Below, in pieces: positions 1-46,269 of a DNA stretch of 64,000 nt. The notes beneath the pieces are model-generated. The model was not told the DNA's origin, ran no database searches, and was given only the letters and a program-made list of their open reading frames with translations. Within the stretch, counting starts at the first letter, position 1; every line of letters starts with the position of its first letter. The position numbers and the translations under genes are program-made. Origin of the DNA: Candidatus Rokuibacteriota bacterium (GTDB taxonomy: Bacteria > Methylomirabilota > Methylomirabilia > Rokubacteriales > CSP1-6); contig JAHFDK010000009.1 of assembly GCA_023249095.1 (NCBI GenBank), positions 1,595 through 65,594 of the forward strand, given 5' to 3'.

Positions 1-132
1 TCCAGCCTCCCGGACGACGAAGCCGCGACGTCAGAGGCGCTGTTCCGGGCCGCCGACGAGGCGCTCTACGGGGCGAAGCGGGCAGGCAAGAACCAGGTCA
101 TGGGCGCGGGGCCGGCCGAGAAGGTGGGCTGA
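1..132 (+). CDS. C-terminal end of a GGDEF-domain diguanylate cyclase (5' part outside window)
   Basis: Frame 1 reads ...SEALFRAADEALYGAKRAGKNQV... and stops at TGA 130-132. The ALY.AK..G.N motif is the usual end of GGDEF domains. Confidence 0.6.
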   Translation, partial: SSLPDDEAATSEALFRAADEALYGAKRAGKNQVMGAGPAEKVG

Positions 133-133
133 C

Positions 134-1189
134 ATGATAGAGCGGCGTGACATCCTGATCGTCGACGACGATCGCCAGGTCCGCGAGGTCCTGCACCAGA
201 TCTTCCTCGGCGCCAACTACAAGTGCCTGCTCGCCAACGACGGGCAGGAGGGGCTCGAGGTGTTCCGTGCCTCACGGCCACCCCTCACCGTCACCGACCT
301 CAAGATGCCGGTCATGGGGGGGTACGAGCTGCTCCAGCACGTGCGCCAGGCCGACCCGGACGCGGCCGTCATCGTCCTCACCGGCGCGGCCGACGTGAAG
401 ACCGCGATCGCGAGCCTCAAGCTCGGGGCGTACGACTTCATCATGAAACCGGTGAACGTGGACGAGCTCCTGATCGCCGCCGAGCGGGCCTTCGAGCGGC
501 GTCAGCTCCTGATCGAGCGCCGCCAGTATCATGAGCTCCTCGAGCGCCGGGTCGTCGAGGCGACGCACGACCTCGAGCAGGCCTACCGGCAGCTCCAGGA
601 CACTTACCGGACGACGCTCGAGGCGCTCGGCTCGGCCCTCGACACGCGCGACGTCGGCACCGAATCCCACTCGCGTCGCGTCCACGGCTACGCCCTGGCG
701 ACGGCGCGCGAGTACGGCGTGCCGGAGAAGGAGATGACCGACCTCGCCCACGGCGTGCTGCTCCACGACATCGGCAAGATCGGTATCCCCGACGCGATCT
801 TGCTGAAGCCCGGCCCGCTCACCCCGGAGGAGTGGCAGATCATGCGGCGCCATCCGGAGATCGGCAAGCAGCTGGTCGAGAAGATCCCCTTCCTGCGCGG
901 CGCCTTGCCGATCGTCTACGCCCACCACGAGAAGTGGGACGGCACCGGCTACCCGCGCGGGCTCAAGGGTGAGGAGATCCCGCTCGGCGCGCGGATCTTC
1001 ATGGTGGTGGACGCGTTCGACGCGATAACCTTCGACCGCCCGTACTCGAAGGCCCAGTCCTTCGACGCCGCCAAGGCCGAGATCAAGCGTTGCGCCGGCA
1101 AGCACTTCGACCCCGCCGTCGTGACGGCGTTCTTCCAGGTGTCCGAGGCTCTGCTCGCGGAGATTCGCCGCAAGAGCGTCGAGCCGTAG
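134..1189 (+). CDS. Two-component response regulator with receiver domain and HD-GYP c-di-GMP phosphodiesterase domain (RpfG-like)
   Basis: The N-terminus (ILIVDDD...TDLKMPVMGG...KP) is a CheY-like receiver. The C-terminus carries HDIGKIGIP and HHEKWDGTGYPRGL, the HD-GYP signatures. Confidence 0.9.
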   Translation: MIERRDILIVDDDRQVREVLHQIFLGANYKCLLANDGQEGLEVFRASRPPLTVTDLKMPVMGGYELLQHVRQADPDAAVIVLTGAADVKTAIASLKLGAYDFIMKPVNVDELLIAAERAFERRQLLIERRQYHELLERRVVEATHDLEQAYRQLQDTYRTTLEALGSALDTRDVGTESHSRRVHGYALATAREYGVPEKEMTDLAHGVLLHDIGKIGIPDAILLKPGPLTPEEWQIMRRHPEIGKQLVEKIPFLRGALPIVYAHHEKWDGTGYPRGLKGEEIPLGARIFMVVDAFDAITFDRPYSKAQSFDAAKAEIKRCAGKHFDPAVVTAFFQVSEALLAEIRRKSVEP

Positions 1190-1211
1190 ACAGCGCGGGC
1201 CCTTCAGAGGC

Positions 1212-2996
1212 TCAGGCCGGCTCCTCCAGGCCGAGCTCCTCGCAGAGGCGCTGGATCCGCGTGTAGGCCGCCCACAGTTCCCCCTCGGTGAGGCCGAGCT
1301 CGACGCAGTTCCTCAGCAGCATCCGGAGTTGCTCGGCGCCCTGCGCCGCTTCGTCGCGGCAGCCGGCGTCGGAGAGGCGTCGGATGGACAACGCGCGCAC
1401 CGCCGCGATGCCTTCGAGCGCGCGCACGACCGCCGCGCGCGTCTCAGCCTGGCGATCGGGACCGATGGAGTCGAATCGGAGCGCGTGGGTCAGCGGATCG
1501 AGCGCCTCCTCGTAGGCGCCGGCCTCGAGCCGGCGGCTCCCGAGCTCCGCGTACCCCCACCAGAGCCGCTGGTCCAGCTCGGCGCGGCGCGTCGGGGGCA
1601 GGGACTCGGCGGGAATCGTCGCCAGCACCTCCTCGGCGTGCCGGAGTGACTCGAGCGCTTCGGGCTCGCGCGCTTCCTGCATGTTGAGGATCGCCTGGGC
1701 GGTGAGCTGACCGACCTCGGCGCCGAACGTGCTGGAGAGCAACCCGCGGAACCCCGCAGCGCGTACGGCCGGCAGCGCGGAGTCGTCCAACGCCTCGTGC
1801 AGGAGCTGCCGTGCACCACCGAACTCCTGCCGCTGGAGAAGCGCCGTGACGGCCTGCTCGTAGGCCTGCCAGAGCGCCTCGCGGGCTGCCTCGCGCGCGT
1901 TGCTGAGCGCCGGGTCGGACGCCACCGCGGTGAGCCCGCGCTCCGTCCATGCGATCGCCGTTCGGATCGTCGCGACACGATCGCCGGTGTCGTGGCTCCC
2001 GGCGCGCCCGAGCCGCGCCTGGGCAGCGTCGAGCGCGAGCGCCGCGAGGTGGCGGCGGTAGGTCGCCCGCTCGACCTCGGGCGCGGTGTCGATGGCCAAC
2101 TCCAGGGCCGAGCGTGCGCCGTCGTCGTCGCCGAGAGCCTGCTTCGCCAGCCCGACGACCGACCAGAGCGCCGCGGTGTCGTGTGAGGCGCTTGCGGGCC
2201 ACTCGACGCTCAGCTTCGCCAGCGTCTCCTCTCCCACCGTCACGACCTCGCCGAATCGCTTCTCCTGATACAGGGCGAAGCACGCCTCGACGAGCGGCGA
2301 ATCGCGGCCGGACTTCGTCTCCGGCATCGGCGGCGCCGGAGAACCGCCCCACGGTCGAACAGGCTGCTCCGGGGCGGTCCCGCCGGCCCCGCCACCTCCA
2401 AGTGGTACGAGATCGGGCGTCGCCGGCTCCGCGCCCGGACCCGCCTGGGTATTCGGAGCGCGCAGCACCCCGTGCGGCCGAGCATGGGGCGAGATCTTAC
2501 TCCGTCGCCGGCGGGGCGGCGGCGGGGCATGTTCAGCGGGTCGCGACGGCGCGACGTGTTCGGTCGGCCGGGGCGCCGGGCGCTCGGGCGGTGGCAACGG
2601 GTCGACGTGCTCGGTCGGTCGCGCGGGAGGGACGGCTTCGGCAGACGGCTCCGGCGTGTCGGGTGCAGTCGGTCCGGGCGCGACGGCCTCGGGTGGCGGC
2701 GGCGGAATGGCGGGTGGGGTCGGTTCCGGGGCCGAGACGGCTTCGGGTGGCGGGGGAGCGACGTAGCCGGCCGGTCGCCGAAACACAATCTCTGCGGGTG
2801 GTCGAGAGGATGCGACATTCAGGGTCAGGCGTGCAGGCACGATGGCCTCGGCCGGCCGCGACGGCGTCGGTTGAGCCTGAGGACGGCGGACGGAGTGGCT
2901 CGGCTTGGACGGCCAGACCAGCTCGAGCACGCCCAGCACGAGCAGCATGCAGGCTCCGGCCACGACGCTGAGGATCAACGCTTCTTCGCTCAGCAC
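1212..2996 (-). CDS. Membrane-anchored proline-rich protein with C-terminal helical-repeat (TPR-like) region, function unknown
   Basis: 594-aa ORF with an N-terminal hydrophobic helix (ILSVVAGACMLLVLGVLELV) and about 200 aa of Pro-rich repeats (PPPPEAV, RPTEHV). The rest is a long Ala/Leu-rich helical region. The start is uncertain. Confidence 0.5.
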   Translation of the reverse strand: MLSEEALILSVVAGACMLLVLGVLELVWPSKPSHSVRRPQAQPTPSRPAEAIVPARLTLNVASSRPPAEIVFRRPAGYVAPPPPEAVSAPEPTPPAIPPPPPEAVAPGPTAPDTPEPSAEAVPPARPTEHVDPLPPPERPAPRPTEHVAPSRPAEHAPPPPRRRRSKISPHARPHGVLRAPNTQAGPGAEPATPDLVPLGGGGAGGTAPEQPVRPWGGSPAPPMPETKSGRDSPLVEACFALYQEKRFGEVVTVGEETLAKLSVEWPASASHDTAALWSVVGLAKQALGDDDGARSALELAIDTAPEVERATYRRHLAALALDAAQARLGRAGSHDTGDRVATIRTAIAWTERGLTAVASDPALSNAREAAREALWQAYEQAVTALLQRQEFGGARQLLHEALDDSALPAVRAAGFRGLLSSTFGAEVGQLTAQAILNMQEAREPEALESLRHAEEVLATIPAESLPPTRRAELDQRLWWGYAELGSRRLEAGAYEEALDPLTHALRFDSIGPDRQAETRAAVVRALEGIAAVRALSIRRLSDAGCRDEAAQGAEQLRMLLRNCVELGLTEGELWAAYTRIQRLCEELGLEEPA

Positions 2997-3985
2997 GGGA
3001 GATCCACCGGCCGCCGCTCGGCGACGGAGCGATACGCGGCGAGCACGACCGCAAGGTCGCGCCGGCCCGACGCGCCGTCGGTCTCGGGCAGCCGCCCGGA
3101 GCCCACCGCCTCGCCGAACGCCCTCAGCATCGCCTCGTGACCTCTCGAATCACGGCGAAAGAGTCGAAGGCGCGTCCGGCCGCGCGGCCTCAACAGGACA
3201 AAGCGACCGCGATTGTCGGCGAAGATCGTGCCGTCGGCGCCTGTTACCGAGGACCATTGAACCCGCGGAACGCCGGTAGCGCCAAGAGAATTGGACACGA
3301 AGCCGACGACCCCGTCCGGCAGCTCGGCGAGAAGGTCCACGGCGTCCTCGCCGCCGAGGTCGACCGTCTGCGGCGGGCGGAGGGCAAAGAGCCGCCGCAC
3401 CTCGCCGCCCCACCAGCGCAGGTTGTGGACGTAGTGGATGCCGGCGTCGATCAGCACGCCGCCGCCCGCGGCCCGCGAGACAAGCCGCCAGCCCGAGTGC
3501 TGGTGGTATCCGCGAGCGACGAGGTGGATGGCGCGCAGCGGGCCGACCGCGCCCGCCGTCACCAGGGCGTGGACGTGGCGGAATGCCGGCATGAAATGAA
3601 AATTCTCGGCGACCATCAGGACGCGCCCGGCGGACTGTGCGGCCGCGATCATCCGATCGGCCTCTTCCACGGTCGGCGCGATCGGCTTCTCGACGAGGAC
3701 GTGGAGACCCGCCCCGAGCGCCAGCAGGGTGTCGGCACAGTGGCGATCGTGTGGCGTGCAGACGACGGCGGCGTTGGCCCGGGGATCGTGCGCGGCGGCC
3801 TCGTACGCGCCGAACGCGTCGGCGGCGCCGAACTCACGCGCGAACGCGCGGGCGCGAGCCAGGTCACGGCTCGCGACGAGCAGCGGCACGCCGATCCGCC
3901 GGGCCGCCGCCGCGTGACGGCGCGCGATCCACCCGCAGCCGAAGAGGACCAGTCCTCGCAGGGCCACGAATTTTGATGCTAGCAT
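2990..3985 (-). CDS. Gfo/Idh/MocA family NAD(P)-dependent oxidoreductase
   Basis: This is the 3' third of the 781-aa track ORF, starting at ATG 3985 (MLASKFVALRGLVLFGCGWIARRH...). It has a Rossmann N-terminus and the EKP motif (VLVEKPIA). The upstream part of the track ORF is antisense to the thiolase gene. Confidence 0.8.
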   Translation of the reverse strand: MLASKFVALRGLVLFGCGWIARRHAAAARRIGVPLLVASRDLARARAFAREFGAADAFGAYEAAAHDPRANAAVVCTPHDRHCADTLLALGAGLHVLVEKPIAPTVEEADRMIAAAQSAGRVLMVAENFHFMPAFRHVHALVTAGAVGPLRAIHLVARGYHQHSGWRLVSRAAGGGVLIDAGIHYVHNLRWWGGEVRRLFALRPPQTVDLGGEDAVDLLAELPDGVVGFVSNSLGATGVPRVQWSSVTGADGTIFADNRGRFVLLRPRGRTRLRLFRRDSRGHEAMLRAFGEAVGSGRLPETDGASGRRDLAVVLAAYRSVAERRPVDLPC

Positions 3986-4003
3986 GCGGCGAGGAGGACT
4001 TTC

Positions 4004-5158
4004 ATGCGCCGGGTCGCCGTGATCGGGGTCGGAGTGACGAAATTCGGGCTGCACGACCGCACCTCGGCCGAGCTCTTCGCCGACGCCGCCGGGGACGCGC
4101 TGACCGACGCCGGTATTGCGGCGAGTGCCGTTCAGGCCCTCTACTACGGCAACGTCGTCGGGGGCGAGACCGAGCATCAGCTCCACACCGGACCGCAGGC
4201 CGCGTCCGTCCTCGGCATCCCGTCCGTGCCCACGACCCGGTTCGAGACGGCGTGCGCGAGCTCGCACGCCGCCTTCCGTCACGCCGTGATGGAGATCGGG
4301 GCGGGCGTGTCGGACGTGATCCTCGTGGGCGGCGCCGAGCGCGTGCTCAACGTCTCCACGGCGGAGTCGACCGAGTACTTCGCCTACGCCTCCGACGCCG
4401 TCTGGGAGCAGCCGCTGGGCCTCACCTTCCCCGGCGTGTTCGCGCTGATCGCGCGGGCGCATATGGAGAAGTACGGCACGACGGAGGCCCAGATGGCGGC
4501 GGTCGCCGTGAAGAACCACCGGCACGGGGCGCTGAACCCGAAGGCGCAGTTCCAGAAGCAGATCACGATCGACCAGGTGCTGCGGTCCGCGTACGTCGCC
4601 GACCCGCTCAAGCTCTTGGACTGCTGCCCGTTCAGCGACGGCGGCGCCGCCGTCGTGCTCGCCTCGGAGGAGGTCGCCCGCCGGCACCGCAAGCCGGTGT
4701 GGGTGCTCGCCTCGGCGGCGGCTTCCGACTGGATGCTGCTCGGCGACAAGCGCGACCTCGCGCGCGTGCCCGCGACGGAGCGCGCGGCGGCGGCGGCGTA
4801 CCGGCAGGCCGGCCTCGGCCCCACCGACGTGGACGTCGTCGAGCTGCACGACTGCTTCACGATCGCCGAGATCGTCGCCACCGAGGGGCTCGGCCTCTTC
4901 GAGCCGGGCGCCGGCGGCCGGGCCGCCGAGACGGGTCTCACGAGCCTCGGCGGGGAGGTGCCCGTCAACCCGTCGGGCGGCCTGAAGGCGAAGGGCCATC
5001 CCATCGGCGCGACGGGTGCCGCGCAGATCGCCGAAATCGTCACACAGCTCCGCGGCGAGGCCGGCCCACGTCAGGTCGACGGTGCCAGAACCGGTCTGAC
5101 CCATACCCTCGGCGGCAACACCGCGACGGTGCTCGTGAGTCTCTTCGGCCGTGACTGA
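4004..5158 (+). CDS. Thiolase-domain protein (SCP-x/non-specific lipid-transfer type acetyl-CoA acyltransferase)
   Basis: 384 aa with an active-site Cys context (FETACASSHAAF) and C-terminal NPSGGLKAKGHPIGATG and THTLGG motifs typical of thiolases. Confidence 0.85.
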   Translation: MRRVAVIGVGVTKFGLHDRTSAELFADAAGDALTDAGIAASAVQALYYGNVVGGETEHQLHTGPQAASVLGIPSVPTTRFETACASSHAAFRHAVMEIGAGVSDVILVGGAERVLNVSTAESTEYFAYASDAVWEQPLGLTFPGVFALIARAHMEKYGTTEAQMAAVAVKNHRHGALNPKAQFQKQITIDQVLRSAYVADPLKLLDCCPFSDGGAAVVLASEEVARRHRKPVWVLASAAASDWMLLGDKRDLARVPATERAAAAAYRQAGLGPTDVDVVELHDCFTIAEIVATEGLGLFEPGAGGRAAETGLTSLGGEVPVNPSGGLKAKGHPIGATGAAQIAEIVTQLRGEAGPRQVDGARTGLTHTLGGNTATVLVSLFGRD

Positions 5159-6423: not shown

Positions 6424-8814
6424 TCATCCTCGCGCCCGGGCGCGCTCGATGAGCCGGAAGAGCCGGTCAGGAGTCACCGGCAGCTCGGCGATCTCGATCC
6501 CGAGCGGTACCAGCGCGTCGGCGACCGCATTCGCGATGGCGGCGGGGGCGCCGATCGTCCCGCCCTCGCCCATGCCGCGGAAGCCGCCGAGCGCCACCGG
6601 CGACGGCGTCTCCAGGTGATGCACCTCCATCCACGGGACCTCGCAGGCCGAGGGCACCACGTAGTCCATCAGGGTGCCGCTCAAGAGCTGCCCCTGATCG
6701 TCGTAGACGACCTCCTCGAGGAGCGCCGCTCCGAGCCCCTGGGCCACGCCCCCGTGAACCTGGCCGTCCACGATGAGCGGATTGACCATGCGCCCGCAGT
6801 CCTCCACGACGACGTAGCGCAAGGGCTTCACCTCGCAGGTCTCCCGATCCACCTCGACCACCGCCACGTGGGTCGCGTTGGACGCGGTGCCGTAATAGGG
6901 ATCGTAGAAGCGCGTGGCCTCGAGGCCCGGCTCCAGACCGGTCGGCAGCCGCCGCGCGCCGGTGTACGCGGCCCTGGCGATCTCGCGCACGGCGACGCTC
7001 CGATCGAGCATCCCGCGCACCGCCCACCGGCCGTCGGTCATCACGACGTCCGCCGGGTCGGCCTCGAGGAGATGGCCGGCGATCACGAGCATCTTCTCGC
7101 GCACGGCCCGCCCGGCGAGGATGGCGGCCCCGCCCGCCAGCACGAGGCTCCTGCTCGCGTAGGTGCCGGTGCCGTAGGGCGAGACCTCGGTGTCGCCGTG
7201 GATGACACGCACATCGTCGATCGGCACGCCGACTTCGTCGGCCACGATCTGGGCCAGCGTGGTTTCGAGCCCCTGCCCGTGCGAGGCGATACCGAACACC
7301 GCCGTCACCTTGCCCGCGGGATCGAAGCGGATCGTCGCCGCCTCGGTGCCGGTCGCGATGGGCATACCGGGCGAGACGGGAATCGCCGAGCCGATCCCGG
7401 TCAGCTCGACGTAGGAAGCGACGCCGACGCCCAACCAGCGTCCCTCGGCGCGCGCCCTGGATTGCTCGGCGCGCACGGCCGCGTAGTCCAGAGCCTCGCA
7501 GGCCCGCAGCAGCGACGCGGTGAAGCTCGCCCGATCCCACACGATGCCGGACGGCGACTTGTAGGGAAATTCCTCGTCGCGCACGAAATTGCGGAGACGG
7601 ATCTCCGTCGGATCCATCCCGAGCTGGCGCGCCGCTCGATCCATCAGGCCTTCGATCACGAAGACCGCCGGCGGGCGGCCGACTCCCCGATACGGGCCCA
7701 GCGGCGCCTTGCAGGTGGCGACGCCCCGCGTGCGCCCTCGGTACGTGGGCACCCGGTACGGCCCGGGCAGGAAACTGATCGTCTGCACCGGCTCGATGGC
7801 GGCCGTCCACGGATAGATGGAATACGCGCCGACGTCGGCGGTGACCTGAGCCCGGAGCCCGACGATGGCGCCGTCGCGGTCCACGCCGAGCTCGGCCTCG
7901 ACGATCTCGTCCCACGCGTGCGTGGTCGCGAGCAGATCCTCGCGGCGGTCACCGATCCACTTCACCGGGCGACCCAGGCGACGGGCCATCACGCAGGTGG
8001 CGATCTCCTCCGGGTAGAGCGACGCCTTGGCGCCGAAGCCGCCGCCCACATCGGCGGCGATCACGCGGATGCGGTGCTCGGGCATGTCGAGCAGATCGCT
8101 CAGGACGTCGCGGACGAGACCGGGACACTGCGCCGACGAGCGCAGCGTGAGCGTCCCACTTCCGGTCGCGTACTCGGCCAGACAGCCGCGGTTCTCCATG
8201 CAGACCGGGGTGTGCCGGTGAAAGCGGAATCGCTCGCGCACGACCAGCGCCGCCCCGGCCAGCGCCTCGTCCACGTCGCCCCGGCCGAACTCGCGACTGA
8301 CGAGCAGGTTGGTGCCCGCCTCGTCATGGAGCAGCGGGCTTTCGGGCCGCAGCGCCTGTTCCATGTCCGTGACGACAGGGATCGGCTCGTACTCGACCAG
8401 GATGCGCTCGACCGCGTCCTCGGCCACGTACCGGCTCTCCGCCGCGACCATCACGACGGCTTCACCCACGTGACGCACTTTGCCGAGCGCGAGGGGCGGA
8501 AAGCTCGTGACCTTCACGGCGGGAGTCTTCGAGGCCGCGCGCACGGGCTTCGCTGAGCGCGCGACGTCTTCGCCCGTCAACACCGCCGCGACTCCCGGGA
8601 GCGTGAGCGCCGCGGAGGCGGCGATGCTCACGACGCGCGCGTGGGCATGGGGCGATCGGAGGAAGGCGGCGTACAGGAGCCGCGCCGGACGGTGGTCGTC
8701 GACGTAGCTCCCCTGCCCGGTCAGGAAACGGCCGTCCTCCCGTCTCGCCACGCGAGCGCCGACGAGCCGCGGGAGCGCCGTCGGGGCCGTCGCGCCGGCT
8801 CGGTGCTCGGTCAC
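6424..8814 (-). CDS. Xanthine dehydrogenase family molybdopterin-binding large subunit (CoxL/aldehyde oxidase-like)
   Basis: 796 aa with an N-terminal RREDGRFLTGQGSYVDD motif and a GPYRGVGR segment. Length is as expected for Mo-hydroxylase large subunits. Confidence 0.9.
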   Translation of the reverse strand: MTEHRAGATAPTALPRLVGARVARREDGRFLTGQGSYVDDHRPARLLYAAFLRSPHAHARVVSIAASAALTLPGVAAVLTGEDVARSAKPVRAASKTPAVKVTSFPPLALGKVRHVGEAVVMVAAESRYVAEDAVERILVEYEPIPVVTDMEQALRPESPLLHDEAGTNLLVSREFGRGDVDEALAGAALVVRERFRFHRHTPVCMENRGCLAEYATGSGTLTLRSSAQCPGLVRDVLSDLLDMPEHRIRVIAADVGGGFGAKASLYPEEIATCVMARRLGRPVKWIGDRREDLLATTHAWDEIVEAELGVDRDGAIVGLRAQVTADVGAYSIYPWTAAIEPVQTISFLPGPYRVPTYRGRTRGVATCKAPLGPYRGVGRPPAVFVIEGLMDRAARQLGMDPTEIRLRNFVRDEEFPYKSPSGIVWDRASFTASLLRACEALDYAAVRAEQSRARAEGRWLGVGVASYVELTGIGSAIPVSPGMPIATGTEAATIRFDPAGKVTAVFGIASHGQGLETTLAQIVADEVGVPIDDVRVIHGDTEVSPYGTGTYASRSLVLAGGAAILAGRAVREKMLVIAGHLLEADPADVVMTDGRWAVRGMLDRSVAVREIARAAYTGARRLPTGLEPGLEATRFYDPYYGTASNATHVAVVEVDRETCEVKPLRYVVVEDCGRMVNPLIVDGQVHGGVAQGLGAALLEEVVYDDQGQLLSGTLMDYVVPSACEVPWMEVHHLETPSPVALGGFRGMGEGGTIGAPAAIANAVADALVPLGIEIAELPVTPDRLFRLIERARARG

Positions 8815-8862
8815 AAGCGTCGCGTCCCTTCGCGCCGGAGCCGTACGCGCGTTCCTCCGGAC

Positions 8863-9351
8863 CTAGCGCCCGGCGACAAGTATCGGGGCCGCGGCGCGGA
8901 CCGCGTTGACGATCCCCTGGTAGCCGGTGCAGCGGCAGAGGACGGCGGAGATACCCTCGCGTATCTCACGGTCGTTGGGCGACGGATTCGTGCGGAGGAG
9001 ATCGAGGGCGGTGATCAGCATGCCCGGGGTGCAGAAGCCGCACTGCAGTGCATGGTGCTCGCGGAACGCCTCCTGCAGCGGATGGAGCTTGCCGTCCCGC
9101 ATCAGGCCTTCGACCGTCATGAGCTCGGCGCCGTCCGCCTGGACGGCGAGCATGATGCAGGAGCGGGCGGCCTCGCCGTTGAACATGATCGTGCAGGCGC
9201 CGCAGATCCCGTGCTCGCACCCGACGTGCGTGCCGGTGAGACCGAGGTCTTCGCGGATGAAGTCCGCGAGCAGCTTGCGGGGCTCGCACCGCCCCTCGTG
9301 CGCGACACCATTCACGTTCAGACGGACGGTGACCATGTCAGCCACGCGCAA
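8863..9351 (-). CDS. (2Fe-2S)-binding small subunit of Mo-hydroxylase (CoxS-like)
   Basis: 162 aa with both cluster motifs, GCEHGICGAC and ALQCGFCTPG...CRCTGY. Confidence 0.9.
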   Translation of the reverse strand: MRVADMVTVRLNVNGVAHEGRCEPRKLLADFIREDLGLTGTHVGCEHGICGACTIMFNGEAARSCIMLAVQADGAELMTVEGLMRDGKLHPLQEAFREHHALQCGFCTPGMLITALDLLRTNPSPNDREIREGISAVLCRCTGYQGIVNAVRAAAPILVAGR

Positions 9352-10204
9352 CTCCGATCGCCCTCGTGAGGGCGCGCTTGGTGAGCACTCCAGTCAGGTG
9401 GCGCCGGTAGTCGGCCGAGGCGTGGATGTCCGCATCTGGAGTCACGAGCTCGGTGGCCCGTCGGGCCGCGGCCTCGATCGCCGCCTCCCCCAGCCCCTCG
9501 CGCTCCAGAATCTGCTCGGCGGCGCGCAGCCTCACCGGCACGGGGCCGGCCCCGGCTGTGGCGAGCCTCGCCATCGTGCAGCGCGGGCCCTCGCGCACGA
9601 CCACCGCCGCGATGCCGATGATCGCGAAGTCGCCGTGACGGCGCGCGAACTCTTCGAGCGCGTACCCGGCGCCGGCCGGCATCACCGGTAGCCTCACCTC
9701 CGTGAGGATCTCGTCAGGAGCGAGGCTCGTGGTGAGGTACGTCTGGAACAGATCCCCGGCGCGGATCACGCGCTCGCCCCTGGCTCCGCGCGCCACCACT
9801 TCGCCCTCGAGCGCCGCGAGGACGGCCGGATACTCGGCCGAGGGGTCGGCGTGAGCGATCGAGCCGCCGATCGTGCCCCGCGTGCGGATCGGCAAGTGCC
9901 CGACCCAGTGCGTGGCTTCTTTCAGAAGCGGTAGGCGCTGGGCCACGACGGGCGAGAACTCGATCGTTCGCTGGCGCGTCATGGCGCCGAAGCGGATCTG
10001 GCCGTTGTGCTCGCGGATGTAGGCGAGCGAGCCGATCCGGTTCAGATCCACGAGCGCCGTCGGCCGGGCCAGGCGGAAGTTCAGCAGGGGCATGAGGCTC
10101 TGGCCGCCGGCCAGGACTTTGGCGTCGCCGCCGTAACGCCCGAGCGCCTCCAGCGCCTCCTCGAGGCTCTTCGGGGCGTGGTACTCGAATTTCGGCGGTT
10201 TCAT
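9338..10204 (-). CDS. FAD-binding medium subunit of Mo-hydroxylase (CoxM-like)
   Basis: 288 aa starting MKPPKFEYHAPKSLEEAL, with ..AGGQSL.. and ..GTIGGS.. motifs. It overlaps its neighbours, consistent with translational coupling. Confidence 0.9.
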   Translation of the reverse strand: MKPPKFEYHAPKSLEEALEALGRYGGDAKVLAGGQSLMPLLNFRLARPTALVDLNRIGSLAYIREHNGQIRFGAMTRQRTIEFSPVVAQRLPLLKEATHWVGHLPIRTRGTIGGSIAHADPSAEYPAVLAALEGEVVARGARGERVIRAGDLFQTYLTTSLAPDEILTEVRLPVMPAGAGYALEEFARRHGDFAIIGIAAVVVREGPRCTMARLATAGAGPVPVRLRAAEQILEREGLGEAAIEAAARRATELVTPDADIHASADYRRHLTGVLTKRALTRAIGVARG

Positions 10205-12795
10205 TGTAGCGATGTCCTCGAGGTCGGGTCGGACCGAGGGTGGCCTGAGAAAGAAGCGCGTGGCTCCGACACGCCCGCTCTGGGCCGAAGTGCTCGTGAC
10301 TCGCGTGGCTCCGACACGCCCCGTCTGGGCTGAAGCGCTCCTGAAGCGAGTGGCGCCGACACGCCGGTGGGGGTCCGTTGCGCCTGATCAATCGCCTTCC
10401 AGAGTTTCGAGGGGGTCATGGGCAGCTCGTTGATCCTGATCCCGAGCGGCGCCAGCGCGTCGCTGACGGCGTTCGCGATGACCGCCGGCACCGTCATCGA
10501 CGACGACTCGCCGAGCCCTTTCGAGCCGAGCGGCGTCAGCGGCGACGGCGATACCACATGCGCGATTTCGATTTGCGGCGCCTCACTCGCGGTCGGTACC
10601 AGGTAATCCATGAAGGTTCCCGTCAGCAGCTGTCCATTCTCGTCGTAGGCGAGCTCCTCGTACAGCGCACCCCCCAGACCGTGGAGCGCGCCGCCGTAGA
10701 TCTGCCCCTCGGCGATCATCGGGTTGATGATCGTGCCGGCGTCGTGCACGGTGACGTAGCGGAGGATCTTGATCGCGGCGGTCTCCGGATCAACCTCCAC
10801 CGCCATCACTTCCGCGATGAAGCCGTAGGTGTTGGACGAGTTCACCCGGTCTTCCGCGTCCACGGCTTTCGCGACGGTGAAGCCGAACACCGCCGTCGCC
10901 TGGAGCCCGGGCTCCATCCCCTCGGGCAGCGACTCCGTGTTCCAGTGGGCCCGGCCCGCCAGGTCCTTGATGGAGTACGACGGGCCCTTGCCGTCGCGGA
11001 GACGCACGGCGCCGTCCCGGAACTCGAGAGAGGGCGCCGGCAACTCCATCAGGTGCGCCGCGTAGTCCACGAGCTTCGCCGTGAGTTTGCGCGCGGCCAG
11101 GGCGACGGCGCTCGTCCCCACGGAGCCGAAGCGGCTCGAGTACGTTCCCGACGAGATGGACCACACGCGCGTGAAGGTGTCCATCTCGTCGACGACGGTG
11201 ACGTCCTGGGGCACGAGCCCGAGCTCGTCGGCGACGATTTGGGAGACGACGGTCTGATGGCCCTGGCCCTGGGGCGTCGTGCCGAGGATCGCGATGACGC
11301 GGCCGAGCGGGTCGATCTTGATCGTCGCCGAATCCACGGCGCCCGACTTCGCCAGGTACTCGGGCTTCGCGCGGAACTGCGGGTCGAGCGCCGTGGCCAC
11401 GTAGCCCATGTTGGATACCGACGGGTCGACGGCGAGCGCAAGCCCGATCCCGACGTAGCGCCCCGCGGCCCGCGCCGTCGCCTGCTCGCGCCGCAGCTCG
11501 TCGTAGCCCGCGAGCTCGAGCGCGCGATCGAAGGCGGCCGGATAGTCCCCGCTGTCGTAGAGCCCGCCGCTCGGCGTGCGGTACGGAAACTGATCGGGCT
11601 GGATGAGGTTCTTCCGCCGCACCTCGACCGGATCGAGGCCGAGTCGGTCGGCGAGCCGGTCCATCATGCCTTCGGTCTCGAAGTAGAGGTGGCCGCACGC
11701 GTAACCGCGATTGGGCCCGGTGAGGCTCTTGTTGGTCATGACCACAGAGGCATCAACTTCGAGATGCTGGAAGCGATATGGACCAACAAAATTTCCGGTG
11801 GGACGAAAGCTACAACCCGGTTCCGGGCTGCGGATGTAGCCGCCTACATTATCAAGCCACTTGAACCGCATGCCGAGGATCGTCCCGTCTTGCCGCGCCG
11901 CCACTTCACGATACGCGACGCGATCCGTCCCGCTCGACGACGCCAGTAAGTGCTCTCTCCGGTCCTCGATCCACTTGACCGGGACCCCCAGCCGCTTCGC
12001 GGCGAGCGCGATCAGCGCGATGTACGGGTAGATCGACGACTTGATGCCGAAGGACCCCCCGATGTCGGCGGGCACGATGAAGCGCAGCCTGTTCTCCGGC
12101 AGGCCGAGAACGCGCGCCGTCAGCGGGTGCATGATGAACGGGCCCATGAAGTTCGACCACACGGTGCACACGCCATCGAGCAGGTCCCACCGGGCGATGA
12201 CGCCGTACGTCTCGATCGGCGTCGATGCGTACTTCGGAAAGGTGAAGCGCTCGTTGACGACGACGTCGGCGTCGCGAAACGCCCGATCGGGGTCGCCATA
12301 GACCAGCCGGCGGTTCCCGGCCAGGTTCGACCCGACGGCCTCGTGGAGCACCGGCGCGTCGGCATCGAGGGCGCGCTCGGGATCGACGACGACCGGGAGA
12401 GGCTCGTAGTCCACCTGGACGAGATCGGCGGCATCCTCGGCGATGTAGCGATTTTTCGCCACGACGACGGCCACCGGCTCTCCCACGAACCGGACCCGAT
12501 CGGTCGCCGCGCAGTAATAGTGAATCGGCGCCGTGACGCCGACCGAGAAGGGCTTGGTGTGCCGGGCGACATCCTCGCCCGTGATCGCGCCGACGACGCC
12601 GGGAAGGGCCAGCGCCGCCGAGAGCTCGTACCCGCGGATCTTCGCGTGGGCCAGCGGCGAGCGGACGATCGCCGCGTGGCACGCGTTCGCGACCGGAGGA
12701 TGATCGTCGATGAAGGTTCCGCGACCGGTCAAGAGCCGCGCGTCCTCGACGCGCTTGACCGACTTGCCGATCCAGCCGAGACCCGTTCCCTCCAC
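10201..12795 (-). CDS. Second xanthine dehydrogenase family molybdopterin-binding large subunit, with repeat-containing C-terminal tail
   Basis: 864 aa starting GKSVKRVEDARLLTGRGTFIDD and homologous in layout to Mo-hydroxylase large subunits. The last 55 aa or so are three 15-aa repeats that are not part of the conserved fold. Confidence 0.85.
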   Translation of the reverse strand: MEGTGLGWIGKSVKRVEDARLLTGRGTFIDDHPPVANACHAAIVRSPLAHAKIRGYELSAALALPGVVGAITGEDVARHTKPFSVGVTAPIHYYCAATDRVRFVGEPVAVVVAKNRYIAEDAADLVQVDYEPLPVVVDPERALDADAPVLHEAVGSNLAGNRRLVYGDPDRAFRDADVVVNERFTFPKYASTPIETYGVIARWDLLDGVCTVWSNFMGPFIMHPLTARVLGLPENRLRFIVPADIGGSFGIKSSIYPYIALIALAAKRLGVPVKWIEDRREHLLASSSGTDRVAYREVAARQDGTILGMRFKWLDNVGGYIRSPEPGCSFRPTGNFVGPYRFQHLEVDASVVMTNKSLTGPNRGYACGHLYFETEGMMDRLADRLGLDPVEVRRKNLIQPDQFPYRTPSGGLYDSGDYPAAFDRALELAGYDELRREQATARAAGRYVGIGLALAVDPSVSNMGYVATALDPQFRAKPEYLAKSGAVDSATIKIDPLGRVIAILGTTPQGQGHQTVVSQIVADELGLVPQDVTVVDEMDTFTRVWSISSGTYSSRFGSVGTSAVALAARKLTAKLVDYAAHLMELPAPSLEFRDGAVRLRDGKGPSYSIKDLAGRAHWNTESLPEGMEPGLQATAVFGFTVAKAVDAEDRVNSSNTYGFIAEVMAVEVDPETAAIKILRYVTVHDAGTIINPMIAEGQIYGGALHGLGGALYEELAYDENGQLLTGTFMDYLVPTASEAPQIEIAHVVSPSPLTPLGSKGLGESSSMTVPAVIANAVSDALAPLGIRINELPMTPSKLWKAIDQAQRTPTGVSAPLASGALQPRRGVSEPRESRALRPRAGVSEPRASFSGHPRSDPTSRTSLQ
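10257..10372. repeat. About 2.6 copies of a 45-bp direct tandem repeat
   Basis: cgcgtggctccgacacgccc(g/c)... recurs at 10257, 10302 and, degenerate, at 10347. The period is 45 bp and in frame, giving GVSEPR.S.AL.PR. repeats in the large-subunit tail. Confidence 0.6.
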
Positions 12796-39135: not shown

Positions 39136-39720
39136 CTATTTCGGCTTGGGTCTGTAAGGCCAGATCGTACCGGTGACCTTGATGGTCACCGTCGTTTTGA
39201 CGTTGGCCGATTCGATCCCTTTCGTGGCCGGGTGCGCTCGCCGTTCAGACGTCTTGGTCACGACCGACGGAACATCGCGCGTGTAGAGGCGCATGTTCTG
39301 AACGATGTCTCCTCTGGGCTTCACGTGCTGTTCCAGGGTCCTGACCGCGCCATTGGCGTCCACCTTCCCATTCACGATAGCGGTGTGGTGGCCGCGTTTG
39401 GCCGTTGATTCCTTCTTCTCCGTCACCGTGGATCCGTCCTTGAAGGTGTACTCGATCACGGTGGTCGTCGTCACGAGGTGATTTCGGATCTGGAGAATGT
39501 CACCGGGCTCGACGTGGCTGACGTCGTCGACAGGATCACCCCAGATGTAATCCGAGTCGTCCTTGACAGGGCCGAGGTCATTGGATGTCTGCGCGCCGGC
39601 TTGCTTGAGCGCTTGCTCACCAAGGTCCCAGCACTCTCCCCGTCCGACTTTCGCCCCCAGTTTTCCCCGTGCCCATACCACGACCTGCTGATTCGTCGTG
39701 AGTGGCTGTGCCTTGCTCAT
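39136..39720 (-). CDS. Papain-like (CHAP/NlpC-P60-type, BPSL0067-like) putative cysteine hydrolase; candidate T6SS cargo effector
   Basis: 194 aa with no signal peptide. Candidate nucleophile in VGRGECWDLGEQAL (Cys30), then PGDILQI and RGHHTAIV (His111/112). G+C is visibly lower than in the flanking core genes (about 60% against 70% in hand counts of sample lines). Confidence 0.5.
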   Translation of the reverse strand: MSKAQPLTTNQQVVVWARGKLGAKVGRGECWDLGEQALKQAGAQTSNDLGPVKDDSDYIWGDPVDDVSHVEPGDILQIRNHLVTTTTVIEYTFKDGSTVTEKKESTAKRGHHTAIVNGKVDANGAVRTLEQHVKPRGDIVQNMRLYTRDVPSVVTKTSERRAHPATKGIESANVKTTVTIKVTGTIWPYRPKPK

Positions 39721-44883: not shown

Positions 44884-45320
44884 TCATTCGTCGATGTCGG
44901 AGTAGTCGTAGATGGCCAAGCCGAACCCACAGTTGAATCATGCCAGCTTGGTCAACACCGGCGCTTCCAAGCAGTACACCGGAGCGTTGCCGTAGATCTT
45001 GACCACCCCGTTAAAGCCGGCCTTCAGCCCGCTCCGCTCCACGAACTCCCGGATGCCACGCGCGCCGGCAAACGATGTCCAAGACGGCCTGGAAGGCTTT
45101 ATCGATGCTGTCGAAAGGGTTGCTCCGGAACGCCGACCGCCCAGTGGGTGTCGGCCAGGTCGGCGCGCTCCCGCAAATGCTCGTGCCGCTCCCGCCAGAT
45201 GCGGGTCGGGTACAAGCCGATCGCCCGTGTCACCCTCGTCGGGATCGAAGCCGCGGCCACAGATATTGTGAACTCCGCCTCCACCGTGGCTCCGCGCTCA
45301 TTGCGCAGTGGATTCGTCAT
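44884..45320 (-). pseudogene. Decayed DUF4279-like gene
   Basis: The minus strand reads MTNPLRNERGATVEAEFTISVAAASIPTRVTRAIGLYPTRIWRERHEH...HWAVGVPEQ. After a frameshift near 45110 it reads NPFDSIDKAFQAVLDIV...VVKIYGNAPVYCLEAPVLTKLA. An in-frame TGA (44938-44940) is followed by FNCGFGLAIYDYSDIDE*. The pattern matches DUF4279 as I remember it. Confidence 0.55.
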
Positions 45321-45639
45321 GTCCGCCGCGCCGAGCGCACACGATGAGCGGGGCTCAGCAACCGCCGTCGTCATCGTCTCCGCCCCGGCGATCATCCTTT
45401 TTCTTGAGGGGTACTGCCCCGCAAGGTCGTCCACCTTGAGACCCGTTCTCGGAACGGTCTCGGCACGCGGGGGGGCCGTCACAACGCGAACGACCGCGGA
45501 GACCGTCTGAAGCGTCCCGGGCCCCTGAGGGGCGCCGACCACCGCAACACTCACCCTCCTCCGCGGGCCGGATTCCTCCAGTAGTTGGCCGGGCCGTTGA
45601 TCTGGGCCTCTGTCATGTTCGAAGGCGGCCGTCACCTCA

Positions 45640-46269
45640 TCACTTCGGCCCTGCCTCACATAGCTTTTCCACATCGATCTGATCGGCTGGCCACGAGCCG
45701 AGCAAGTACCACCTCACTAGGGCGGCGTGTGACAACGGTTGTGAGGTGTCCCGAAGATCGTCGTTTGTCGAGTAATCCAGAAGGAAGATGCCACCGTGTT
45801 TGCTTGCTTCCCTGAGAGTTGCCGTCTCCTGTTGGAGACGATGGTCGAGAATCCAACGATACGTGGGGAGGTAGAGCACCACCCTGGCCGTCATGTAGTC
45901 GATCAAGGAGGGGCGAGCGCCGAGCTGGTGCCCCAGCACGCGGCCGCGTGGGACGCCGTTCCTGCCTCGCGCACGACTGCTTCTTTTGATGTTACCCAGG
46001 GTAGTGATCGAGAATTTGGCCACGTCTACCTCATTCTCGAATTCGAAGCGCTTCAGTCCTTGCCAGATGCCCTCGACCGAAGAAGCGGTGATGCCCGGCC
46101 AGAACGGGACGGGAATGCCACCGTGTGGGAAAAATGGGCTAAATCTGATCCAGGGCTCGGGCCCTTTCGACGTGAGGTCGAACACGGCGGAGTCCCCGTA
46201 GGCGCGTCGCAGGCGCCCCGCCGCGCGGCGAGGCGCAACGGTGATCCCAGAGTCGAGACCGCCATTCAT
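45640..46269 (-). CDS. Conserved-looking hypothetical protein with NADAR-like motifs; candidate second immunity/ADP-ribosyl hydrolase
   Basis: 209 aa. FSPFFPHGGIPVPFWPGITASSVEGIWQGLKRFE and ...IFLLDYSTNDDL... parallel the FSNF...G..(W/Y).(T/S)SEH.(F/Y)QA.KF and LVE...ND..WG segments of YbiA/NADAR proteins. It is the second gene downstream of the Rhs toxin. Confidence 0.55.
   Translation of the reverse strand: MNGGLDSGITVAPRRAAGRLRRAYGDSAVFDLTSKGPEPWIRFSPFFPHGGIPVPFWPGITASSVEGIWQGLKRFEFENEVDVAKFSITTLGNIKRSSRARGRNGVPRGRVLGHQLGARPSLIDYMTARVVLYLPTYRWILDHRLQQETATLREASKHGGIFLLDYSTNDDLRDTSQPLSHAALVRWYLLGSWPADQIDVEKLCEAGPK

Follow-up and report, generated by a model that had tools for sequence, protein, structure and literature searches.

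The window, a 64,000-nucleotide stretch of contig JAHFDK010000009.1 from a Candidatus Rokuibacteriota bacterium, carries on its minus strand a gene (45640..46269) for a 209-aa protein of the Pfam family DUF6939 (PF22075). As stated in an earlier account made from the letters alone (below, the sequence-only reading), it is the second gene 3' of an rhs toxin gene; a 103-aa open reading frame (ORF) lies between the two, and all three are co-directional. Here we consider the DUF6939 protein as a candidate second immunity that would remove ADP-ribose from the target of the Rhs toxin. The features of the locus are as follows.

53403-55331, minus strand: VgrG (Pfam), a T6SS (type VI secretion system) delivery gene upstream of rhs
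52285-53385 and 51163-52281, minus strand: two DUF2169 genes (Pfam) of the T6SS delivery block 50401..55331
50401-51162, minus strand: gene for a 253-aa protein without family, in the T6SS delivery block and in the same orientation as rhs
46667..50209, minus strand: Rhs effector, 1180 aa (PF05593 E 5e-68, PF20148, PF03527, TIGR03696)
46670..47083, minus strand: Rhs toxin tail, residues 1043-1180, beginning after the PVNWVDPLGL cleavage motif; predicted TreThr/RhsF-CT-like ADP-ribosyltransferase (ART)
46321..46632, minus strand: putative small immunity, 103 aa when read from ATG 46632, 117 aa in the longest ORF, which opens with GTG 46674
45640..46269, minus strand: DUF6939 protein, 209 aa, ORF with ATG start (PF22075 E 2.1e-59; AlphaFold2 model with mean pLDDT 94.2)

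The delivery genes were assigned with Pfam, from the precomputed annotation of an identical contig (L001) and a scan of the window ORFs. The Rhs effector has the layout DUF6531, YD-repeat shell, Rhs core and toxin tail (Pfam, NCBIfam), and genes for TagF and a T6SS FHA protein are located on the other side of the DUF6939 locus. Given these surroundings (VgrG, DUF2169, TagF, FHA), the locus is the effector end of a T6SS island. Around the toxin, immunity and DUF6939 genes, neither scans for promoters and terminators nor the GC profile were informative.

The ORF at 45640..46269 is a real gene and not a chance ORF, because its product scores 200.4 bits with PF22075 (cut-off 27; residues 14-185 span model positions 3-167 of 167), has many homologs in many species, and is modelled by AlphaFold2 with high confidence. 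A word-indexed protein search found 703 DUF6939 homologs, an exhaustive one 1200 cluster representatives (50% identity clusters, E<=0.001), and at least 574 GTDB species genomes encode a relative, with hosts that include Chloroflexi, Planctomycetes, Actinobacteria, Cyanobacteria, Acidobacteria, Proteobacteria, Bacteroidetes and Firmicutes. The window protein had no match in NCBIfam or PADLOC, no DUF6939 homolog was found among INPHARED phages, and a literature search returned no mention of the name DUF6939 or of its relationship to NADAR proteins.

The tail of the Rhs effector (its last 138 residues) matches Chromobacterium violaceum RhsF-CT in the PDB (9zdm_B, phmmer E 1.8e-6). Its VYR, its FISTT and the E of its SKEVLVEG align to R1403, S1445 and E1497 of RhsF-CT, and the position of Y1456 is occupied by His in the window tail and by Trp in those of loci L084 and L085. 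By this homology the window tail is assigned to the TreThr/RhsF-CT family of ADP-ribosyltransferases; the sequence-only reading had taken it for a CT/pierisin-like ART, and its closest characterised relative is TreThr/RhsF-CT, a tRNA-targeting ART, instead. RhsF-CT was described as an R-Y-E ADP-ribosyltransferase whose active site is occluded by the immunity protein RhsFi (bioRxiv 10.64898/2025.12.06.692724). Under the name TreThr, the same domain was reported to ADP-ribosylate positions 35-36 (G35/U36) of the GGU anticodon of charged tRNAThr, with G35 as the favoured acceptor (PMC13617354).

Homologs of the small ORF product follow the toxin tail directly in 13 of the 13 loci of a toxin-first metagenome scan, and also in L003, L084, L085 and L101-L105; for this reason we regard it as the canonical cognate immunity. 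Sequence matches in Pfam, NCBIfam, PADLOC and the PDB were absent, as was any match to RhsFi, and the single-sequence AlphaFold model (pLDDT 55) is too poor for a fold search. The analogy with RhsFi suggests that the small immunity acts by binding to the toxin and blocking access to its active site. At L098:1085-1636, L099:4473-5024 and L100:1156-1728, the small immunity gene stands twice in tandem after a more divergent tail, with no hydrolase; tail identity is 37% in L098 and L099, and L100 matches a fragment only. Orphan Rhs tail fragments with other toxin domains lie downstream in L090 and L093.

The relationship of DUF6939 to NADAR proteins was assessed with two alignments, one of the 46 closest homologs (A1) and one of 84 diverse family members (A3). 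The family of DarT1-associated NADAR antitoxins, PF22397, is matched by 29 of the 84 diverse members (E<=0.01, best 2e-7); protein P0261 scores 27.3 bits against a cut-off of 27, and the DUF6939 protein of locus L108 has E 1e-5. In multidomain members, too, it was the DUF6939 region as such that gave sub-threshold matches to this model. When the A3 profile was run against the whole PDB, the best match was the NADAR protein of G. lovleyi (8bat_A, E 0.0099). The single window protein and A1 retrieved nothing relevant from the PDB in sequence searches. In hhalign, A3 aligned to the DarT1-NADAR alignment with Prob 94.2% and E 1.2e-7, and, after addition of 8BAT residues 48-211, with Prob 94.0% and E 1.4e-7 over 158 columns, whereas the reversed-sequence DUF6939 control gave Prob 0.2%. 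These 8BAT residues were rebuilt from two printed alignments and partly fill the C-terminal half of the profile; a protein search seeded with the 8BAT fragment gave mostly truncated N-terminal fragments of DarT1-NADARs.

Comparison of A1 or A3 with 34 YbiA-type NADARs yielded Prob 0.2% and E 0.25-0.32 in hhalign, the best local stretch, vilDvTSkG..FSPF..SVEGIWQGLKvF against vInFYs..FSNF..TSEHYFQAQKF, being exactly the segment singled out in the sequence-only reading. This failure with the PF08719 type carries little weight, because two accepted NADAR subfamilies also fail to link to each other: a bona fide DarT1-NADAR gave Prob 1.1% with the same YbiA-type alignment. By the hhalign scores, DUF6939 is far closer to DarT1-NADAR than DarT1-NADAR is to YbiA. 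Thus the NADAR kinship claimed in the sequence-only reading holds for the DarT1-associated PF22397 and is not significant for the YbiA-type PF08719, on which the comparison had been modelled. On this profile evidence DUF6939 is a divergent relative of the DarT1-type NADARs, at the level of remote homology.

The C7 NADAR of E. coli requires E88, K95 and D171 for guanine de-ADP-ribosylation, and its E173 is conserved and dispensable (PMC11543638, Schuller et al.). In DarT1-type NADARs an N-terminal extension (beta strands and one helix) precedes the YbiA-like core, and the catalytic Glu and Lys lie seven residues apart on the NADAR core helix (C7 E88/K95, YbiA E48/K55; PMC11543638). The corresponding residues of the window protein were found by hhalign:

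E66 (codon 46072-46074, minus strand), predicted catalytic: aligned to E of SVE in 8BAT and to E88 of C7 NADAR
K73 (codon 46051-46053, minus strand), predicted catalytic: aligned to K of SSKVFE in 8BAT and to K95 of C7 NADAR
D165 (codon 45775-45777, minus strand), predicted catalytic: aligned to D of FTDIEFN in 8BAT and to D171 of C7 NADAR
S167: aligned to E of FTDIEFN in 8BAT and to E173 of C7 NADAR

In this alignment the window stretch SVE66GIWQGLK73 stands over SVESAFQSSK of 8BAT, and LLD165-Y-S167-TN over FTD-I-E-FN. Glu and Asp are 83 residues apart in 8BAT, as E88 and D171 are in C7, and this settles which residues of the two proteins correspond. None of E66, K73 and D165 varies among the 46 closest homologs, and across the 84 diverse members their conservation is 90% or more. 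The segment that holds the first two, FSPFFPHGGIPVPFWPGITASSVEGIWQGLKRFE, comprises residues 43-76 (DNA 46042-46143, read from the translation); the range 46051-46143 proposed for it earlier had the correct upper bound and a lower bound 9 nt off. The placement of Glu66 at the NADAR-equivalent position agrees with its alignment to C7 E88, and the later motif described as NADAR-like, IFLLDYSTNDDL (residues 161-172), contains D165, which aligns to the catalytic Asp of D-x-E.

The order of elements in the AlphaFold2 model (N-terminal beta-alpha-beta, FSPF loop, hairpin, catalytic helix, long helices, strand, D-x-E loop) is consistent with published descriptions of NADARs (PMC11543638, PMC9503650), whose YbiA-like fold has a helical core with two small beta-sheets at its flanks. 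Other hydrolase classes were not matched by the window protein: neither PF03747 (Pfam) nor an ARH structure (Foldseek) was hit, nor was a macrodomain in either search, macro and PARG domains appearing only as fusion partners in other DUF6939 proteins. The protein was also considered as an ART in its own right, which was rejected since the model is alpha/beta with long helices and has no Foldseek PDB match of any kind, and as an orphan Rhs tail, which was rejected since it has no remnant of the Rhs core and no PxxxxDPxGL motif. Within BFVD, significant structural similarity was confined to giant-virus proteins that are uncharacterised (from Megaviridae, Marseillevirus, Pithovirus and Solivirus; E 7e-5 to 1e-3, TM 0.5-0.6); weak, short BFVD matches to DUF4326, DprA and DUF2493 were not trusted.

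The gene order of ART tail, ~100-aa immunity and DUF6939 recurs in at least 12 loci (window/L001, L003/L084, L085-87, L092, L094-96, L101-103 and L105, and a Bartonella plasmid described below) from hosts of 37-73% GC. Members of the window's DUF6939 subclade share an insertion of 8 aa and a KRFE signature; nine of nine members with readable context stand in the cassette. Around the closest DUF6939 homologs (L084, L085-87, L101, L102, L103/104, L105 and L003, the last from a Bryobacteraceae metagenome-assembled genome, MAG), the tails and small proteins are clearly homologous to those of the window. The co-occurrence of homologs with ART toxins, to which the sequence-only reading had pointed as a test, is therefore observed. 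In the toxin-first scan (13 loci, 12 informative, one too short), DUF6939 comes next in 4/12 and a canonical NADAR in 1/12. The cassettes of L095 and L096 (37-42% GC) contain a DUF6939 from the main clade of the family, which indicates independent recruitment. Moreover, a canonical NADAR (L097:2553-3140, plus strand; PF08719, E 3.3e-54) occupies the slot after tail and small immunity in L097, in what looks like an in-situ swap of two hydrolase families.

Three loci extend this linkage to other settings:

L106, plus strand: Rhs 1-3627, 97-aa ORF 3648-3941, DUF6939 3953-4507
L005: DUF6939 7660-8223 (plus strand), small ORF 8212-8532 (minus strand), Rhs 8535-12104 (minus strand)
L108, plus strand: DarT-domain protein 2688-3947 (419 aa, C-terminal DarT), DUF6939 3980-4648

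On the 15-kb plasmid NZ_CP104891.1 of Bartonella sp. HY761 (L106), an Rhs protein with a tail of the same ART family is followed by a 97-aa ORF unlike the window immunity and by DUF6939, and a RelE/ParE-NadS pair adjoins these genes; the proteins of this cassette are WP_263499737.1, WP_263499727.1 and WP_263499728.1, the last being the DUF6939 protein. In L005, from a Polyangiaceae MAG, the DUF6939 gene is of the main clade and runs, unlike in the co-directional cassette, towards an Rhs gene that has a related tail and is followed by a different small ORF; it overlaps the 3' end of this ORF by 12 bp. Finally, a DarT-domain protein (PF14487, E 4.5e-30) is encoded directly upstream of DUF6939 on the P. 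distasonis plasmid NZ_OY725823.1 (L108); the two genes are 32 bp apart, a 498-aa gene without family follows, and the pair resembles a DarT-NADAR toxin-antitoxin system.

Taken with the profile data, we consider that DUF6939 is probably a catalytic second immunity, which would remove ADP-ribose from the nucleic-acid target of the toxin. We infer a hydrolase activity, guanine-ADP-ribosylated tRNA as its substrate, a protective role, and a binding mode of action for the small immunity. By homology, the Rhs tail would ADP-ribosylate a nucleobase in the tRNA anticodon loop and so block translation; the small immunity would bind the toxin stoichiometrically and occlude its active site; and DUF6939 would hydrolyse the N-glycosidic bond between ADP-ribose and the base, most likely at guanine N2. 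The tRNA would thereby be repaired after attack by toxin that escapes the binding immunity or is delivered by sister or rival cells, and DUF6939 would form a second layer of immunity independent of the toxin sequence. The module of toxin plus catalytic immunity proposed in the sequence-only reading is upheld in its recurrent linkage, and has to be amended in that DUF6939 is not the sole immunity, the small immunity gene lying between the two. NADARs are known to strip ADP-ribose from G and C and not from U (PMC12945103, PMC13036486), so a NADAR-type partner favours, by inference, G35 as the acceptor of the toxin. With a little more confidence than doubt, we further view DUF6939 as an unrecognised branch of the NADAR superfamily, made up of base-specific nucleic-acid de-ADP-ribosylases with three uses: second immunity beside TreThr-like T6SS Rhs toxins, antitoxin of some DarT-like toxins, and a widespread stand-alone shield against foreign nucleic-acid ARTs.

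Several observations weigh against this interpretation. The homology between DUF6939 and NADAR is visible at the level of family profiles only; the window protein alone matches neither PF22397 nor PF08719 in Pfam even at E<=1, and hence is a relative and not a member of PF22397. The C-terminal half of the DarT1-NADAR profile is built from few sequences (P0427 and the 8BAT fragment). The sequence-only reading had named the lack of a NADAR-like fold or profile match as refuting; the profile comparison was positive, but the fold search was negative, as Foldseek of the pLDDT-94 model against the PDB gave a best E of 2.6 with TM ~0.1 and matched no NADAR structure, although the PDB contains 2B3W, 8BAT and 8BAU. 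Position 167 is Ser in the window protein and Glu in most of the family. About half of the toxin-family loci (7/12 informative ones) have neither DUF6939 nor NADAR; DUF6939 is therefore dispensable for immunity, and its facultative presence fits an accessory layer, not the primary immunity. Lastly, in 78 of the 80 best genome loci there is no toxin beside DUF6939 and no conserved neighbour, and unbiased ORF clustering around these 80 loci found conserved neighbours only among close relatives. In the absence of a family-wide neighbour, conserved-operon reasoning fails in general and works only for the toxin-linked subclade.

The partners of DUF6939 across the family are almost all enzymes of ADP-ribose metabolism. 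Fusions involve NADAR, microbial PARG, NUDIX, DprA/SLOG, DUF4326 and two types of macrodomain, the latter at one or the other end of the protein; occasional neighbours are ARH, NrtR and phosphatases of the DSP type, both "polymorphic toxin" and "Swiss Army Knife", and LRR and WYL-WCX modules were found as well. Such a profile is expected of an enzyme for an ADP-ribosyl linkage different from those of its partners. Examples of fusion proteins are P0257, P0258, P0261, P0275, P0276, P0283, P0342 and P0369, with DprA/SLOG, NADAR, PARG, WYL-WCX and NUDIX domains. Two further fusion partners, an HMG box and, in a protein of 1301 aa, Rpb1 domains of RNA polymerase, suggest eukaryotic or giant-virus copies, or else artefacts of assembly or gene calling. 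In a Chloroflexaceae MAG (L038:7029-9946), DUF6939 is immediately preceded by a PF03747 ADP-ribosylglycohydrolase gene and has two phosphatase genes of the DSP type downstream (Tc-R-P / PTP-SAK models); the group may be an ADP-ribose-processing gene cluster.

The same partners could be read differently, with DUF6939 acting on a small molecule (free ADP-ribose, ADP-ribose phosphates, a by-product of the toxin or a signalling nucleotide) and, in the cassette, detoxifying or recycling what the toxin makes by consuming NAD. The fusions to NUDIX, SLOG/DprA, DUF4326 and PARG and the DSP-phosphatase and NrtR neighbours would suit such a role, as they resemble the small-molecule ADP-ribose networks that have been suggested for NADAR, SLOG and Macro proteins of viruses (PMC9503650); for YbiA itself the annotation is N-glycosidase acting on riboflavin intermediates, and the majority of DUF6939 proteins are stand-alone. 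However, the specific links of the family are to nucleic-acid-modifying ARTs (TreThr-like tails and DarT), its nearest relatives, the DarT1-NADARs, act on ADP-ribosylated DNA, the three residues for guanine de-ADP-ribosylation are kept (PMC11543638), and in L097 the same slot holds a canonical NADAR. We therefore consider a small-molecule substrate unlikely.

Still less probable, in our opinion, is that the cassette DUF6939 is a non-catalytic second immunity that binds the toxin, or an orphan immunity against a different incoming toxin, of the kind that poly-immunity loci 3' of rhs genes contain. Its position 3' of toxin and immunity is where orphan immunities accumulate (cf. the orphan Rhs tails and small ORFs of L090 and L093), and it is facultative within the toxin family. 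Yet ~50% identity across phyla and invariant polar residues, including the retained NADAR catalytic ones, are enzyme-like and unlike fast-evolving binding immunities, and the family is widespread without an adjacent toxin, for instance in Actinobacteria, Chloroflexi and Cyanobacteria. DUF6939 also pairs with three different small immunities and with divergent tails, which fits an activity independent of the toxin sequence.

That the resemblance to NADAR is spurious, DUF6939 being a new fold of unrelated function that hitch-hikes on a mobile cassette, seems very improbable to us. The want of a Foldseek PDB match and of a significant relation to PF08719 speaks for it, as do the uncharacterised giant-virus proteins as only structural neighbours; opposed to it are independent profile evidence with a clean reversed control, at least four independent kinds of association with ARTs and ADP-ribose hydrolases (the subclade cassette, L095/L096, convergent L005 and the DarT pair), the replacement by NADAR in situ, and the many fusions to ADP-ribose domains. 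Least credible of all is a service to the toxin, as chaperone, activator or co-factor supplier of the Rhs tail or as regulator of the locus: T6SS effector loci often include accessory proteins, and there are ART toxins that depend on a host chaperone, e.g. TreX on TrxA (PMC11606950), but T6SS adaptors are encoded upstream of the effector, like the DUF2169 genes here, DUF6939 abounds in organisms and contexts that lack T6SS or Rhs, a canonical NADAR hydrolase can replace it, and after the DarT gene it takes the antitoxin position.

Three other genes of the island may be mentioned. Just 3' of DUF6939 lies a 147-aa ORF (45099-45542, minus strand), which was predicted as a gene on the identical contig as well; Pfam assigns it to no family, and none of the other cassette loci was seen to have it. 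It could represent a further immunity-like gene, or else a shadow ORF without coding function in this high-GC DNA. Genes for 253-256-aa proteins without Pfam family adjoin paired DUF2169 and VgrG in the window, L084, L101, L102 and L103, and probably encode an unnamed T6SS adaptor or spike accessory of Rhs islands. Between TagF and the T6SS FHA gene, a 194-aa protein (39136-39720, minus strand) matches the cysteine-proteinase-fold family PF25459 (E 2.8e-9), and by this match may be an amidase-type T6SS effector.

Among known systems, the nearest detectable relative of DUF6939 is the DarT1-NADAR of E. coli C7 and G. lovleyi (PF22397; 8BAT). Both have an N-terminal extension, the motifs [LV][DE][IV][ST]SK[SG], [FL]S[PA]F and SVE..Q..KVFE, and the catalytic E, K and D; both adjoin genes for nucleic-acid-targeting ARTs, and for both a reversal of base ADP-ribosylation is proposed. 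In contrast to DarT1-NADAR, DUF6939 is a separate Pfam family, and the window protein is below the PF22397 threshold and has no Foldseek match to 8BAT. Its partner, moreover, is a secreted Rhs tail of the R-S-E type (with tRNA as target by homology) and not an intracellular DarT acting on ssDNA, and the window locus has a separate, putative binding immunity.

The closest architectural precedent is Bxa-Bsi-BAH of Bacteroides stercoris, in which one ART toxin has two cognate immunities, a binder and an ADP-ribosylhydrolase (PMC11699363), the same logic of blocker plus hydrolase that we predict for the window cassette. Bxa is a prophage MuF-type toxin with N-linked ADP-ribosylation of proteins, whereas in the window the toxin is the tail of a T6SS Rhs protein and has a tRNA-modifying ART as its relative; BAH is described as an ADP-ribosylhydrolase, whereas the window candidate is NADAR-like and has no PF03747 match. 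Among T6SS toxins, the closest precedent is the ART Tre1 of Serratia proteamaculans, said to have been described by Ting and co-workers in 2018, which reportedly has an immunity, Tri1, that enzymatically removes ADP-ribose and protects beyond the cognate toxin. Tri1 is said to be a single protein of DraG/ARH fold that both binds and hydrolyses, the target of Tre1 being an arginine of FtsZ. Compared with this pair, the functions in the window seem to be split over two genes, with a predicted NADAR-like fold and a nucleic-acid target.

With RhsF/TreThr-RhsFi of C. violaceum (9ZDM) the window shares a homologous toxin domain, the Rhs scaffold, a vgrG island and a small downstream immunity. The C. 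violaceum island as described consists of vgrG3, rhsF, its immunity, a truncated rhs and another immunity, and has no hydrolase gene; unlike RhsF, the window Rhs has a DUF6531 N-terminus, no detected FIX domain, and His in place of Y1456. The stand-alone protectors ScARP/SCO5665 (PMC12945103), myxobacterial YarT-YbiA (PMC11125620) and PARG against RhsP2 (PMC11833690) reverse toxic nucleic-acid ADP-ribosylation, have been proposed to serve immunity or defence, and form a parallel to the many stand-alone DUF6939 proteins of Actinobacteria, Chloroflexi, Cyanobacteria and Planctomycetes; by family they belong to the PF08719 NADARs or to the PARG macrodomains, and none has been described within a T6SS Rhs cassette. 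Rhs RNA-targeting ARTs were described as irreversible, and countered by binding or scavenging immunities only (PMC11125620), and PARG or NADAR were proposed only as unlinked defenders (PMC11833690, PMC12945103). The sequence-only reading knew of no module of toxin and catalytic immunity of this kind; our literature search likewise found no description of a NADAR-type gene inside a T6SS Rhs cassette, so this claim stands for T6SS Rhs toxins, with the reservation that Bxa-Bsi-BAH already pairs binder and hydrolase (PMC11699363). The cassette would thus apply a known principle, immunity by binder and eraser, with a new family and in a new setting.

The function proposed here provides a testable role for a widespread family without literature, with about 1200 clusters at 50% identity and members in at least 574 species. 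If true, DUF6939 would give a T6SS toxin with kinship to RNA-targeting ARTs its first immunity candidate of the hydrolase type, with a split two-gene immunity of blocker and eraser recurring across phyla. The finding also bears on which anticodon base is modified by TreThr, a question left by the 2026 TreThr paper: a NADAR-type partner argues for G35, and if DUF6939 is indeed a branch of the NADAR superfamily, its presence and its interchangeability with a canonical NADAR would imply that TreThr-family toxins modify guanine (G35), not uracil. Bartonella sp. HY761, a cultured carrier of the cassette on its 15-kb plasmid, offers an experimental handle. Finally, an eraser that does not depend on the toxin could explain cross-protection between strains.

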